64,000 nucleotides of DNA from an uncultured Candidatus Actinomarina sp. (GTDB lineage Bacteria; Actinomycetota; Acidimicrobiia; Actinomarinales; Actinomarinaceae), in assembly GCA_902596545.1 (NCBI GenBank), contig CACJUH010000001.1, positions 70,858 to 134,857 on the forward strand, read 5' to 3'. The notes under the pieces are model-generated. The model ran no database searches and was not told where the DNA came from. It saw nothing but the letters and a program-made list of their open reading frames with translations. Each line of letters opens with the position of its first letter. Position 1 is the stretch's first letter. Both the position numbers and the translations under genes were made by a program. This document shows positions 36,794 to 64,000 of this stretch, piece after piece.

Positions 36794-37859
36794 TTTTCCA
36801 CTCTATCTTATCTGTTGAATCTTCAATTTGAATATTTGAAGATTCAAGAATATCTCTTATCATGTCAGACATTTCATATTTTTTTTCACTTCTTAGCTTT
36901 AACCGCAAATCAATTAATTGGGTTACTAATTCTCTAAATGTTTTGTTGTTAGATTCGTTTTCTTCAATTTGTATTTCGAGATTCGCAATTTTTCTTAAAG
37001 TTTCATCTGATTTATTTTGTTTAGCCTCTTGATTTATTTCAGATGGTTTATCTTTGTGGCTTTTACTTAAATGATTTTGCAAAGTGGTTAAATCGTAAGC
37101 TTCTCCAGATTTGAATTCTAGAGTTTTATCCTCATTAATGACGGTAACTTGTCCAAGTCCATAAACTTCAAACGTATTTTCTTTACCAGAAATTATCAAT
37201 GCAGTGTGTTCATCAATTCCAAGTAGATTAGAATAATTTATTTCCATTAATTTACTCATCCTATTTTTACCTACATAACTAAAACTTGTATCGTGATTTC
37301 CTCCCTCTCTATTATTAAAGTGAGGCACTACAGTACAAGACAAACCGTATAAGCCAAGCAAATCAAGTCCTTCTTCCCAATATGGATCTATCCCAACCTT
37401 ATATATTTCATAAACAGGTAAAGTGTTTTCTCCCAGTGTTGTTGCTGCAGCACTTGCAAATAGAGCGTTTGCACCTTTTTTAATATGATTAAACAATGTT
37501 TCTTCAATTTCATTGTTCACCCACAGTTTGCTTGCATAACTGGGACTACCAGGGCCTGCAAATATAAAATCTGCTTTTTCTAATAAAGATATCGTTTTAA
37601 AGAATGATTTTGTATTTAATTCTTCTATGTTTCTGTAAGATGCTAATTTAATTTTTATATTTAAACTTAAATCATAAAAATCTTGAATTTTTTCAACAAG
37701 TTGTTCAGCATTTTCCTGAAAACCAAATGGTGAATCTAGCATGTATGCTTTTACAGGTTTAGGAATTTCCTGTAATAGTTTTCTATGTACTGCAACTAAA
37801 TTAGGACTTGTTTCACCAGACCCTAATATTGCAATTGTTCCAAGTTGATTTGACATCAA
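36783..37859 (-). CDS. Peptidase S51-like (PepE/cyanophycinase-fold) protein with a ~110 aa C-terminal coiled-coil extension
   Basis: 358 aa. The motif order ILGSGETSP ... FIFAGPGSP ... FASAAATTLG ... VVPHF parallels PepE FIPFAG / IIVGGGNT / GWSAGAN / INPHF. The tail is charged and heptad-rich. Confidence 0.45.
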   Translation of the reverse strand: MMSNQLGTIAILGSGETSPNLVAVHRKLLQEIPKPVKAYMLDSPFGFQENAEQLVEKIQDFYDLSLNIKIKLASYRNIEELNTKSFFKTISLLEKADFIFAGPGSPSYASKLWVNNEIEETLFNHIKKGANALFASAAATTLGENTLPVYEIYKVGIDPYWEEGLDLLGLYGLSCTVVPHFNNREGGNHDTSFSYVGKNRMSKLMEINYSNLLGIDEHTALIISGKENTFEVYGLGQVTVINEDKTLEFKSGEAYDLTTLQNHLSKSHKDKPSEINQEAKQNKSDETLRKIANLEIQIEENESNNKTFRELVTQLIDLRLKLRSEKKYEMSDMIRDILESSNIQIEDSTDKIEWKIKD

Positions 37860-37907: not shown

Positions 37908-38906
37908 GTGATATCAATTTTAGCTAAAATATTGGAAAAATTTACTATTGAGATTATCCCGACTCTTCCAATGTTTATGAGAACACCTTTATATCTAAAT
38001 ATATTAAAGCTCAGAAAAGTAAAAGACAGATTGAGGCTTGATGTTACTAAAAAAAATCCTACTTTTGAAGATCGTTTGGATTATGCTCTAGACTCTCGAG
38101 CAAATTTAAATAATTCAGGTGAAAAGTTACACAATTTTAATTCCAATGTCGTACTTGAAGAAATAAAAGATGGGCCAGTAAGAATTTATAAATTTATTCC
38201 ACCAAATTCTAGTAAAGATAAATACGGAATCTATTTTCATGGGGGAGGATATTTTGCAGGAAGTATTACCTCACATAAAAATTTAATTTCCCAAATATCT
38301 AATGATTCAAATTTAACTGTTTATTTCTTTGAATATAGATTAAGTCCAGAATACAATTTTCCATCTGCACATGAAGACGCAAAGCTTGCGGTAGATTTTA
38401 TAAAAACTCTTCATCCGGATGATCAAAGTATCTGGATAGGGGAATCTGCTGGTGGAGGTCTTGCTACAGGGCTAGTAGTAGATAAAGAGTATCTTGAAAA
38501 ACCAGATAATCTAATACTTTTATCTCCATGGCTTGATTTGTCTGATAATTTTGAGGATAAGAAATTTTTCAAAAATAGTGATGTGACGATAATTATTGAA
38601 GGTATGTTTGAAGTAGGAGAATATTATGCAGGCGAATATGGAACAAAAAATCCAATATTATCTCCGGTATATGCTGATGTCGATGATTTTCCAGATGTAC
38701 TAATTCAGGTATGCACCGATGAGCTTCTTTACAATGATGCAATAGAATTTGTAAAAAAATTAGAAGATAAGAATATAAATGTTCAACTGCAAACTTGGGA
38801 TGGAGTTTGGCATGCTTGGCAATTCTTTCCAATTAAAGAAGCATATGAAGCACTTGAAAAGATTGTAGAGTATATTAAATCTTTAGAGTTTCACTCTTCT
38901 AAATGA
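37908..38906 (+). CDS. Alpha/beta-hydrolase fold esterase/lipase (HGGG / GxSxG family)
   Basis: HGGGYFAGS oxyanion motif and GESAGGGLA nucleophile elbow. GTG start. The true start may be downstream (MFMRTP). Confidence 0.75.
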   Translation: MISILAKILEKFTIEIIPTLPMFMRTPLYLNILKLRKVKDRLRLDVTKKNPTFEDRLDYALDSRANLNNSGEKLHNFNSNVVLEEIKDGPVRIYKFIPPNSSKDKYGIYFHGGGYFAGSITSHKNLISQISNDSNLTVYFFEYRLSPEYNFPSAHEDAKLAVDFIKTLHPDDQSIWIGESAGGGLATGLVVDKEYLEKPDNLILLSPWLDLSDNFEDKKFFKNSDVTIIIEGMFEVGEYYAGEYGTKNPILSPVYADVDDFPDVLIQVCTDELLYNDAIEFVKKLEDKNINVQLQTWDGVWHAWQFFPIKEAYEALEKIVEYIKSLEFHSSK

Positions 38907-39637
38907 TGTAGGGCAAACCCATAAGGTAATTCAAGCCGATTTTCTTCCATTATTTTTTTATCTTTAAGAATCTCATAGGTTTTCATATCAGTAGTAATTG
39001 CTCCATTATTTAAAATAATACTCCTGTCACAAATCTCTAGAGCCATTGGTAAATCATGAGTTACCAATATAAGTGAAATTTCCAAACTTTTTAGAATTTC
39101 GATTAATTCTCTTCGAGATGCTGGATCAAGATTAGAACTAGGTTCATCTAGAACTAGAAGCTCAGGTTCTGATGCTAAAACACTAGCAATAGCAACTTTT
39201 CTTTTTTGGCCAAAGCTTAAATGGTGTGGAGGCTTATCAATGAAATTATCCATCTTAACTTTTTTTAATGCATTTATAGCATTATTTTCTGCTTCTTCAT
39301 TTGAAAAGCCAAAGTTCTTAGGTCCAAACATAACATCTTCTAATACTGTAGGCATAAATAATTGGTCATCTGGGTCCTGGAAAACTAATCCTACAGTTTT
39401 ACGAATTCTGCTAATGTTTTGTTCATTATATAAGAAATTATCAATTTTAATTTTTTCATCAAGATTTCCAAGAATTCCATTTAAATGAAGAATAAGAGTT
39501 GTTTTTCCTGCACCATTTGGACCAAGAACTGCAATTCTCTCGTTTTTCTTAATTTGAAAATTAATATTATGTAAAGCTTTAAATCCATCTGGATACTCAA
39601 AATTTAAATTATTTACACTTAGGTAGCTATTATTCAT
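38891..39637 (-). CDS. ECF-type transporter ATPase (CbiO/EcfA-like)
   Basis: 248 aa. Walker A GPNGAGKTT, signature LSFGQKRKV, Walker B LLVLDEP. Confidence 0.85.
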   Translation of the reverse strand: MNNSYLSVNNLNFEYPDGFKALHNINFQIKKNERIAVLGPNGAGKTTLILHLNGILGNLDEKIKIDNFLYNEQNISRIRKTVGLVFQDPDDQLFMPTVLEDVMFGPKNFGFSNEEAENNAINALKKVKMDNFIDKPPHHLSFGQKRKVAIASVLASEPELLVLDEPSSNLDPASRRELIEILKSLEISLILVTHDLPMALEICDRSIILNNGAITTDMKTYEILKDKKIMEENRLELPYGFALHHLEE

Positions 39638-40398
39638 ATGAGAAATCTTTCTACAATAGTTGTAGCAATTGAAATAAATGATAAATAATAAAGAAGATAG
39701 GACTTTTTAAATTCTCTTTTCTTAAGTTCAATTGAACCGTTAAAACCTCTTGATATCATTGAGTTATAAACTCTTTCACCTCTTTCATACCCTCTTATCA
39801 ACATTGCACCAGAAGCATATGCAATTGGTTTTAATCCCCTTAATCCTTTTTGATCATAACCTCTTGATTTCATAGCAACTTTAACTCTTTTAAATTCATC
39901 AATAAAAACATCAATATATCTAATTGCAAAAGATAATATTGAAATTAACAACGGTGAAATTTTTAATTTTTGCAAACCATAAATAATCTCAATATTTGAT
40001 GTAGTAGCAGTTAAAACAATTGCTAACGAAACACACAGTGTAATTTTAATTAATATTGAAATCATTTCGTTGAAACCAGTTTCATAAATAGGCAATGAAA
40101 AAAATTCAAACATAACAGTACTGTCTCCCTTACTTAAAAAAGGGAGAAATAAAGCAAACAGTACAAAGGGTATATCGATTGAAAGTCTTTTAAAATATGT
40201 TGATATTTTTATTTTAGATAAATACAACAACAATAATACAACGAAAGTTTGTACAACTATTGCTAAATTTTTCTCAAGGCTTAAAAAAGCAATAGACAAA
40301 ACAATTATAAATGTTGTTGCAATTTTGATTTCAGGTCTGATATTGCTGAGAACAGAGTTACTGTGAATTTCTAGATGATGAGAGTGTGTTGTTTCCAT
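39634..40398 (-). CDS. ECF transporter transmembrane T component (CbiQ/EcfT-like)
   Basis: 254 aa, 5-6 TM helices, C-terminal AMKSRGY...IRGYERG motifs typical of CbiQ/EcfT. Confidence 0.75.
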   Translation of the reverse strand: METTHSHHLEIHSNSVLSNIRPEIKIATTFIIVLSIAFLSLEKNLAIVVQTFVVLLLLYLSKIKISTYFKRLSIDIPFVLFALFLPFLSKGDSTVMFEFFSLPIYETGFNEMISILIKITLCVSLAIVLTATTSNIEIIYGLQKLKISPLLISILSFAIRYIDVFIDEFKRVKVAMKSRGYDQKGLRGLKPIAYASGAMLIRGYERGERVYNSMISRGFNGSIELKKREFKKSYLLYYLSFISIATTIVERFLI

Positions 40399-40404
40399 AT
40401 AAAA

Positions 40405-40437
40405 ATATGTTAATGCAAATTATTTGCAATAACATAT
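40405..40437. promoter_or_regulatory. 33-bp near-perfect palindrome between the fur-family gene and the ECF T gene
   Basis: atatgttaatgcaaat-t-atttgcaataacatat, 15 of 16 arm positions complementary. It is a candidate metalloregulator operator and/or bidirectional terminator. Confidence 0.5.
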
Positions 40438-40854
40438 TTATTTACACTTTTTACATATACCTGAATATATAAAATGATGATTTATACTCTTAAAATTACT
40501 ATCTTTAATTAAAATTTTGTTAATTTCCTCTTTAGTTTCTGTTTTCAAATCAGAGATTGAATTGCACGAATCACAAATAATATGGTTATTATCATATTCA
40601 CTTTTTAAATAATATATTCCTGAACCATGAACTTGGTGAGAGTGTTCAACAATGTCTACTTTTTCTAACAACTCTAGAGTTCTATAAACAGTTGCCAAAT
40701 CTATATTTTGATCTTTTTTCAATGCTAAATTATGTAATTTTTCAACAGTAAAATGTTCGTGTCCTGCAGTTTCTAAAATGTTACAAATCACCTCCCGCGG
40801 ACTAGTGATTCTGTGACCCCTTTTTTTTAATTCATTAACGAAATCCATATTCAA
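40438..40854 (-). CDS. Fur-family metalloregulator (Fur/Zur/Nur-like)
   Basis: 138 aa. N-terminal winged helix (RITSPREVI...ATVYRTLELLE). Metal sites HxHxxC..C (HIICDSC) and C-terminal CKKC. Confidence 0.85.
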   Translation of the reverse strand: MNMDFVNELKKRGHRITSPREVICNILETAGHEHFTVEKLHNLALKKDQNIDLATVYRTLELLEKVDIVEHSHQVHGSGIYYLKSEYDNNHIICDSCNSISDLKTETKEEINKILIKDSNFKSINHHFIYSGICKKCK

Positions 40855-40882
40855 GTATATTATAAGGTTTGATAAGGGACTT

Positions 40883-41356
40883 ATGAAAAGAAAATTTCTA
40901 AAGATACTTAATCGGTATAGTTTAATTTATTTACCTTTAGGCTGGGTTATTGGATTAGCAATTTTCTTTTTTGCATTTGAGCCTTCAGCTGTCTTATATT
41001 TTCTAAGTTTTTTTGTTCTTGGAATATTTTATTTTCTGATTTCATATACTTCTAATCGCAAAATGGTTGACTCGTCTTATTCATATTCAGATTATGAAAA
41101 TTCAATTATTGAATTTTATTCTGATTACTGACTGGGTTGTACTGCTTCAAAATTCATAGTTGATGAATTTAAAAAAGAAAATCCAGAAGTTTTTTTTGTA
41201 TCAATTAATGCTAGTAAACAAAAAGATCATCCATTTATTGATGAGTACAAATTATTTAATACTCCAACATATGTTTTGATAAATAACAAAGGTGAAAAAA
41301 TAGTTAGAAGAGTTGGAACATTTAATCCCACCTACTTTAAAAAATATTTAGCTTAA
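40883..41356 (+). CDS. Membrane-anchored thioredoxin-fold protein with a single in-frame TGA (41129-41131) at the first redox-motif position. Candidate selenoprotein (UxxC) or recent pseudogene
   Basis: Two N-terminal TM helices, then beta1 of the Trx fold (SIIEFYSDY), TGA, LGCTASKF... and a cis-Pro motif (NTPTYVL), all in one frame. The TGA aligns with the first Cys of the thioredoxin WCGPC motif. A hairpin (aaattcat-agttg-atgaattt) lies at 41150-41170, 18 nt after the TGA. Confidence 0.5.
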
Positions 41357-63311: not shown

Positions 63312-64000
63312 GTTCTTTAAAATTCAATGATGTAACTTTAAAGTTTGGTGGTATTACAGCATTGAATAATGTAAGTTTTGAAGTTAAACCCAAGACTTTG
63401 TATGCAATAATTGGACCTAACGGTGCTGGAAAAACATCTATTTTTAATTGTATAAGCGGAATATATAGACCAACAGAAGGTTCAGTTCATTATGGTGACA
63501 GCGACATCAAAGACTTAAGACCAGATCAAGTAGCTAATTTAGGCATTGCAAGAACTTTCCAAAATATTGAATTATTTGAAAATATGACGGTATTAGATAA
63601 TATTTTGATCGGTGCTCATAGGCATTTAAATTATGGTCCTATATCAAGTTTATTTTTCAGTAATAAAACTAGAAAAAGTGAATTGGAAGCAAGAAAAATA
63701 GCTGAAGATATAATTGATTTTCTTGAAATTGAACAATTCAGATATTCATATATTATGTCTCTTCCTTACGGTGTACAAAAACGTGTAGAAATAGGTAGAG
63801 CTCTAGCCATGGATCCAGACTTAATCTTGCTTGATGAACCAGCTGCTGGAATGAACAATGAAGAAACAGAGGATATCGCAAGATTCATTATTGACATACA
63901 TGAAGAAATGAAAAAAACAGTAATACTTGTTGATCATGATATGAACATGGTGATGGATATAGCAGAAGAAGTTATGGTTCTTAATTTTGGGGAAAAACTT
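63308..64000 (+). CDS. livG: Branched-chain amino acid ABC transporter ATP-binding protein LivG (3' end outside the window)
   Basis: MSSLKFNDVTLKFGGITALNNVSFEV...GPNGAGKTS. ATGA overlap with the livF stop. Runs off the window edge. Confidence 0.88.
   Translation, partial: MSSLKFNDVTLKFGGITALNNVSFEVKPKTLYAIIGPNGAGKTSIFNCISGIYRPTEGSVHYGDSDIKDLRPDQVANLGIARTFQNIELFENMTVLDNILIGAHRHLNYGPISSLFFSNKTRKSELEARKIAEDIIDFLEIEQFRYSYIMSLPYGVQKRVEIGRALAMDPDLILLDEPAAGMNNEETEDIARFIIDIHEEMKKTVILVDHDMNMVMDIAEEVMVLNFGEKL

Follow-up and report, generated by a model that had tools for sequence, protein, structure and literature searches.

A conserved palindrome between a Fur-family regulator gene and cbiQ in Candidatus Actinomarina is probably the operator of a metal-sensing repressor

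The 64,000-nt stretch of Candidatus Actinomarina DNA analysed here (the window; 33% G+C) carries on its reverse strand a gene for a Fur-family regulator, followed by the genes for the T component and the ATPase of an ECF transporter. A palindrome lies between the regulator gene and the first transporter gene.

40438 to 40848, reverse strand: Fur-family regulator gene, 136 aa (PF01475); ATG at 40848, TTG two codons upstream at 40854, stop codon at 40438-40440
40405 to 40437, reverse strand: 33-bp palindrome, comprising the predicted operator and flanking symmetric arms and starting right after the regulator stop codon
39634 to 40398, reverse strand: cbiQ, ECF T component, 254 aa (PF02361; TIGR02454; PDB matches EcfT and CbiQ); ATG at 40398-40396
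40363 to 40386, reverse strand: cbiQ codons 5 to 12, N-terminal motif H-x-H-H-L-[E/S]-x-H, invariant in 53 of 53 species
38891 to 39637, reverse strand: cbiO, ECF ATPase, 248 aa (PF00005; PDB matches CbiO 3GFO, 7e-54, and 5X3X)

The initial annotation had called a Fur-family gene and an ECF T/A pair here, and the profile searches agree. The regulator matches the FUR family PF01475 with an E value of 1.7e-26, and since its homologues are 136 aa long, the ATG at 40848 is its likely start. CbiQ (PF02361) also passes the equivalog model TIGR02454 (133.8 bits against a cut-off of 111.8). The ATPase falls below the NCBIfam equivalog cut-offs and has CbiO structures as its best matches. The start of cbiO overlaps the stop of cbiQ by 4 nt (ATGA).

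The same gene order was found at 53 loci: acyltransferase, FMN reductase, tRNA-binding protein, a divergent membrane ORF of 82 aa, fur, cbiQ, cbiO and a convergent hydrolase. The loci L201 and L202, for which Pfam labels were read to 10 kb either side, have an identical order. The 82-aa ORF (40883-41131, forward strand) encodes two transmembrane segments and diverges from the regulator gene, with 34 nt between the two start codons. It is kept in 53 of 53 species and has no match in Pfam or NCBIfam. At the other end, the 3' ends of cbiO and of the convergent alpha/beta-hydrolase gene (37908-38906) share 16 nt (38891-38906), which leaves no room for a terminator between them.

The gap from the fur stop codon to the cbiQ ATG is 39 nt long (40399-40437), and the palindrome takes up 33 nt of it. 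Its forward-strand sequence is ATATGTTAATGCAAAT-T-ATTTGCAATAACATAT, and 15 of the 16 positions in one arm can pair with the other arm. If complementarity is relaxed to 87%, the arms lengthen to 23 nt each (40398-40420 and 40422-40444, a span of 40398-40444). It is the sole site in the window with 16-nt arms and at least 15 matches; under the same criterion, 30 dinucleotide-preserving shuffles of the window gave a mean of 0.03 such palindromes per window. Both earlier statements about this element, that it is a near-perfect 33-bp palindrome and that it nearly fills the spacer, thus stand.

Conservation was assessed across the 53 Actinomarinales loci, taken as one genome per species, in which identity to the regulator of the window ranges from 99% down to 51%; the homologues of this regulator are labelled Candidatus Actinomarina. 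All 53 species have a gap of 37-42 nt between fur and cbiQ. Each gap contains TT(A/T)TTGCAAA-NNN-TTTGCA(T/G), read on the coding strand; this element has the same position throughout, beginning 8-11 nt past the fur stop codon. TTGCAA and TTGCA are invariant (53/53), so that the box can be written TTGCAA-N5-TTGCA[T/G]. The A and T flanking the half-sites (TTGCAAA...TTTGCA) are nearly invariant, the three central bases vary freely across lineages, and the lone mismatch of the palindrome, T opposite T, is itself kept in 24 of 29 sequences. A constant core with variable central bases is the pattern expected of a protein-binding site.

The elements that we assign to this gap, and to the promoter of the regulator gene itself, are as follows.

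40430 to 40435, reverse strand: weak putative -35-like hexamer ATGTTA, read from the sequence; also the outer left arm of the palindrome
40413 to 40429, reverse strand: predicted operator core TTGCAA-ATAAT-TTGCAT, with 6-5-6 Nur-box geometry and 11 of 12 positions matching TTGCAA-N5-TTGCAA
40407 to 40412, reverse strand: putative -10 hexamer TAACAT of the cbiQ-cbiO promoter, abutting the box; TAANAT is conserved
40399 to 40406, reverse strand: 8-nt spacer ATTTTTAT from the -10 hexamer to the cbiQ ATG, without a Shine-Dalgarno sequence
40859 to 40887, reverse strand: predicted promoter of the regulator gene, TTCATA-17 bp-TATAAT, scoring 10 of 12 in a promoter scan

The core resembles the box of Nur, the nickel-responsive Fur-family repressor of Streptomyces, for which the consensus tTGCaa-N5-ttGCAA has been reported (PMC2691836). 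The half-site likeness proposed by the initial annotation extends to 11 of the 12 positions of this published 6-5-6 consensus, and each of the 53 loci matches with at most one mismatch, always at the last base. The core can alternatively be read as a 7-1-7 Fur-type box, TGCAAAT-N-ATTTGCA. With at most one mismatch allowed, the bare Nur consensus is expected 0.59 times per window and was found twice, the second time within a coding sequence. Because such a match is not rare by chance, the case draws its weight from the length of the palindrome, where it lies and how well it is conserved.

ATGTTA and TAACAT stand 17 bp apart, and the box (40413-40429) takes up exactly this spacer. A TANNNT hexamer directly follows the box in all species and has the form TAANAT in 34 of 36 distinct lineage sequences; in the -35-like region T.TTA is conserved across lineages. 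The distance from the hexamer to the cbiQ ATG is 6 nt in 19 of the distinct sequences (L040 counted as 6), 7 nt in one and 8 nt in 16. The consensus promoter scan made no call for a cbiQ promoter, and its -35 element is a poor one. TTGCAA as the -35 element was rejected, as it lies only 11 bp from TAACAT.

No Shine-Dalgarno sequence precedes cbiQ, and the relevant first in-frame codon upstream is a stop codon. Given this lack of a ribosome-binding site, cbiQ-cbiO is most likely transcribed from the box-overlapping promoter as a leaderless or nearly leaderless mRNA, and with an 8-nt spacer the transcript would be expected to start at the ATG or within about 2 nt of it. Leaderless promoters are common in actinobacteria generally. 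Within the window, TANNNT stands 6-8 nt before the start codon of 9 of 35 first-in-unit genes and of 1 of 39 inner genes; on the strength of this excess, leaderless-type transcription appears to be common in the Actinomarina genome. Starts with TANNNT 6-8 nt upstream and without a Shine-Dalgarno sequence include those at 37856, 40848, 42979, 45594 and 62390 on the reverse strand and at 37908 and 47823 on the forward strand. The -10 hexamer of the regulator's own predicted promoter ends 10 nt before the ATG, leaving a leader near zero. This hexamer is kept as TATAAT or TATACT across lineages, and the promoter (40859-40887) contains no copy of the box. From the regulator stop codon onward, the predicted operator and promoter and the start codon of cbiQ are packed into about 39 nt.

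The protein encoded next to the box belongs, judging by its sequence, to the Nur branch of the Fur family, within which it is divergent. When its profile was compared with the PDB, Nur (3EYY) was the best match (92.5 bits, E 1.9e-25), followed by Fur of Bacillus cereus (84.6 bits). Residues H69, H71 and H125 of the regulator align with H70, H72 and H126 of Nur, the site that gives nickel specificity and was reported to be a conserved feature of Nur orthologues alone (PMC2691836). Of the 53 species, 52 have both H69 and H71, and about 42 have the third histidine. The Tyr-Arg pair that contacts DNA (ATVYRTL) does not vary among the regulators, and both CxxC pairs of Streptomyces coelicolor Nur are kept. 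The H70/H72/H126 triad was also found in 58 of the 124 full-length representatives among the best 150 matches from 1.84 billion proteins; of these, the nearest relatives from outside the order have it almost without exception. Among 27 more distant Fur homologues from other phyla (L054-L080), it is absent from all except one Frankiales (actinobacterial) protein. The AlphaFold model of the regulator (pLDDT 82.7) retrieved only Fur-family proteins among its top Foldseek matches, the subfamilies scoring alike.

Its divergence from S. coelicolor Nur is considerable, identity being only about 29-30%. The Nur M-site (His33, His86, His88 and His90) does not carry over: H32 and H89 are kept, and positions 86 and 88 are Tyr and Asn in the window and vary across the order. 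H81 is likewise replaced. The H88A mutant of Streptomyces Nur has nearly no DNA binding (PMC2691836), and the closest relatives outside the order, among the best 150 matches, keep both H81 and H88. The regulator has an extra invariant histidine (H30, in a GHxH motif), which together with D100 may complete a remodelled M-site. The equivalent of His126 is Asn or Asp in about 10 of 53 species. The Asn variants form one clade (L040, L042, L043, L046, L048, L049, L051 and L053, and also L005 and L013), with Asp in L013. The box is unchanged in these species, and in the clade neither the operator nor the histidine motif of cbiQ is altered; the third nickel ligand may be dispensable or replaced there.

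Taken with the box and its position, these features make it likely that the palindrome serves as operator for the metal-sensing Fur-family repressor whose gene directly precedes it, and that it is placed over the promoter of cbiQ-cbiO. The box lies over the spacer and against the -10 hexamer, which is a classical repressor position. In the proposed mechanism, one dimer of the metal-loaded regulator would bind the box, cover the spacer and abut or overlap the -10 hexamer, so keeping RNA polymerase off; it would probably also block polymerases reading through from the regulator gene. When metal is scarce the regulator would leave the box, and the ECF T and ATPase components would be made. That the regulator binds and represses here, that cbiQ has a leaderless start and which metal is sensed are inferences from sequence. 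At that level, the earlier suggestion of an operator through which the adjacent Fur-family protein controls the transporter is supported by the invariant box, its overlap with promoter-like elements and the Nur-type residues of the regulator.

The S. coelicolor Nur system (PMC2691836; PDB 3EYY) is a close parallel. There, too, an actinobacterial Fur-family repressor acts on an ECF-type Ni/Co transporter module through a box of 6-5-6 geometry, and Nur binds the promoters of nikM (nikMNOQ), nikA (nikABCDE) and sodF in a nickel-dependent manner (PMC2691836). The Actinomarina arrangement differs in that the regulator gene is immediately upstream of its presumed target and the predicted operator begins at the regulator stop codon; in that the site reads equally well as a 7-1-7 box; and in having a promoter of leaderless type and an operon without nikM or nikN. 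One clade of Actinomarinales has furthermore lost the equivalent of H126.

Membership in the Nur branch makes nickel the most likely metal to be sensed, and we rate nickel at an even chance or slightly better. The same operator mechanism could also respond to iron, manganese or cobalt, with the ECF module carrying an iron-linked or other cargo, a reading that we consider unlikely but still credible. In its favour, the box is shared with iron-type regulators. In a crystal structure, the iron-type Fur of Magnetospirillum is bound to a symmetrised feoAB1 operator, TTGCAAAT-C-ATTTGCAA (TTGCAAATCATTTGCAA) (PMC4506495). The core TTGCAAAT-N-ATTTGCAA of the M. gryphiswaldense Fur-feoAB1 operator TTAATTGCAAATCATTTGCAATTGC (PMC4506495; PDB 4RB3) is practically identical to that of Actinomarina. 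One Fur dimer binds per site, with an Arg contacting G and a Tyr contacting Ts, and both residues are kept in the Actinomarina regulator. The Magnetospirillum protein differs from the latter in being a general Fur activated by iron or manganese, in lacking the HxH...H triad and in having feoAB as its target.

A metagenome scan for TTGCAAANNNTTTGCAA points in the same direction. It returned at least 120 matches, which belong to unrelated organisms and one repeat family. Among the matches listed, this perfect palindrome occurs beside iron-transport genes or Fur homologues in four unrelated contigs, and no further Actinomarina sites were found.

L093, 5057-5073: copy of TTGCAAANNNTTTGCAA directly upstream of a fur-feoB-feoA cluster
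L181, 1501-1517: copy of TTGCAAANNNTTTGCAA 5 nt before a feoA gene
L073, 3966-3982: copy of TTGCAAANNNTTTGCAA just upstream of another Fur homologue
L155, 1944-1960: copy of TTGCAAANNNTTTGCAA just upstream of another Fur homologue

The three Fur homologues beside these copies (L073, L093 and L155) are without the Nur histidine triad. The box therefore appears to be common to several Fur subfamilies, and since it is bound by an iron-type Fur and lies upstream of fur and feo genes, the motif alone is not diagnostic of nickel. In one metagenome sample (Ga0209679) many repeat copies contain TTGCAAAACATTTGCAA, flanked by GGTTACATGTAAAATAAAACA in inverted orientation (L087-L089, L092, L120, L134, L137, L143, L150, L151 and others); this is probably a dispersed repeat of an unrelated organism.

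Other points also speak for iron, manganese or cobalt. The H86/H88 site of Nur is lost in the regulator and H126 in one clade, the best NCBIfam matches of the regulator are iron Fur models (all sub-threshold), and the T component is named as a cobalt type. Fur-regulated ECF heme importers are known, for example LhaSTA. Against this stands the triad reported as exclusive to Nur, which occurs in the protein of the window and, counted over the 53 species, in about 42. Outside the order, the nearest relatives among the best 150 matches are overwhelmingly of the triad type, whereas the Fur homologues beside the other box copies are without it; Nur is the best solved-structure match; and cbiQ and cbiO are of Cbi/Nik type. 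Actinobacteria usually sense iron via IdeR/DtxR, not Fur. A search of the literature and supplements for nickel or cobalt use in Actinomarinales found nothing.

The initial annotation had proposed a search for further copies of TGCAAAT-N-ATTTGCA near metal genes. The 64-kb window has no second intergenic box, a result that counts against the operator reading. Matches to TGCAAATNATTTGCA with at most three mismatches number 9, against 12.4 expected. With at most two mismatches to TTGCAA-N5-TTGCAA, the other matches in the window all lie within coding sequences, and no regulon can be defined from them. The box match at 63546 encodes a conserved ABC-ATPase motif.

The transporter module resembles the group-I ECF importers CbiMNQO and NikMNQO (e.g. 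PDB 5X3X) in having a CbiQ-type T component and a single CbiO-type ATPase gene that are translationally coupled. It differs from them in that no M (or N, K, L) substrate-capture component lies nearby. No CbiM/NikM, CbiN or NikK/L was found among the membrane ORFs scanned from 20.6 to 63.3 kb of the window, no CbiM/NikM within 4 kb either side in the 53 species, and none by Pfam labels within 10 kb either side in L201 and L202. The cbiQO pair is thus without a capture subunit for 24 kb or more in the window, where it sits among housekeeping genes whose order is strictly conserved. Motif scans for the Ni-SOD hook, the CbiM N-terminus, urease and HypB/UreG returned nothing in the window and the 53 loci. 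A further difference from the group-I importers is the invariant N-terminal HxHH motif of the T component. H-x-H-H-L-[E/S]-x-H lies outside the Pfam/TIGRFAM CbiQ core, which begins at residues 14-20, and may be a metal-binding tail. Only Actinomarinales appear among the 120 matches listed in a search for CbiQ homologues.

It is conceivable, though quite unlikely, that the nur-cbiQ-cbiO cassette, strictly conserved throughout the order, forms a Ni or Co importer working without a canonical CbiM/NikM, by way of the HxHH motif of the T component or of some partner protein not yet recognised, for which the conserved, divergent membrane protein of 82 aa is a candidate. In that case the 37-42 nt gap would be a complete regulatory unit, with operator, promoter and leaderless start from the regulator stop codon onward, and the locus would amount to a minimal circuit for metal homeostasis, retained in a genome that ranks among the smallest of free-living actinobacteria and otherwise has very few regulators. 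Two membrane proteins were set aside as candidates for specific ECF parts: a YczE-like protein of 195 aa as an S component, as it matches NCBIfam YczE and PF19700, and the 82-aa ORF as CbiN, to which neither Pfam nor NCBIfam shows any similarity.

The palindrome might instead work chiefly in the transcript, where a hairpin would terminate the regulator mRNA or stabilise its 3' end. For the site in the window, RNA folding gives a hairpin of 16 pairs at -17.5 kcal/mol (z = -2.8), after which comes AUAUUUUUAU. Counted over the lineages, 82% of cells are paired, as compared with 34-48% in slid controls, and one pair of the outer arms covaries, with G-C, C-G and U-A variants. However, the terminator scan placed no site at the palindrome, and just three pairs of the stem are G-C. 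The U-run is confined to the clade of the window and missing in most lineages, for example TAAAATAATATCATG, and the hairpin energy ranges from -5.7 to -19 kcal/mol across lineages. A G+C-rich stem with a U-tract that is shared by relatives, the mark of an intrinsic terminator, is thus absent here, and an Rfam scan at the locus found no riboswitch or other RNA family. The six core pairs never vary, and the T-T mismatch is kept (24/29), which points to sequence-specific recognition together with the promoter, and not to a structural constraint. An invariant core, loosely symmetric outer arms and the lack of a conserved U-tract fit an operator and not a conserved terminator. A function chiefly in RNA is accordingly very unlikely, and the terminator hairpin suggested earlier finds no support as a conserved function, its core being kept by sequence and not by covariation; a weak terminator role could still exist within the window's own clade.

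That the palindrome is a site for a different protein, or a chance or neutral sequence without a regulatory role, is extremely improbable: the window offers no second site that could define a regulon, but 13 core bases are constant across 53 species, with flanking proteins down to 51% identity, the site strictly adjoins a Fur-family gene and is built, in sequence and geometry, like the boxes of that family, and only 0.03 such palindromes are expected per window.

The operator reading has some bearing on the biology of these organisms. Candidatus Actinomarinales, bacteria that abound in the surface ocean, have genomes of about 1 Mb and have been described as having little regulatory capacity (PMC7771536). 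They have nevertheless kept what is predicted to be a metal-sensing repressor, its operator and a transporter module without change throughout the order, and this retention suggests that the cells must manage nickel, or some related trace metal, as a resource. The locus could serve as a compact model of a repressor acting on a predicted leaderless promoter. That no capture subunit lies nearby raises a small question, namely how an ECF metal transporter is put together in an organism with a streamlined genome. These findings leave the present view of Fur-family regulation as it is; the palindrome would be an ordinary kind of bacterial gene switch, strongly conserved.

Further upstream, the reverse-strand genes between 43012 and 45594 encode a YczE-like membrane protein and then an Opp/Dpp/Nik-type permease pair that scores far below all NCBIfam equivalog cut-offs. 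The permease pair has no adjoining gene for a binding protein or an ATPase, and it occurs only in some Actinomarinales lineages.
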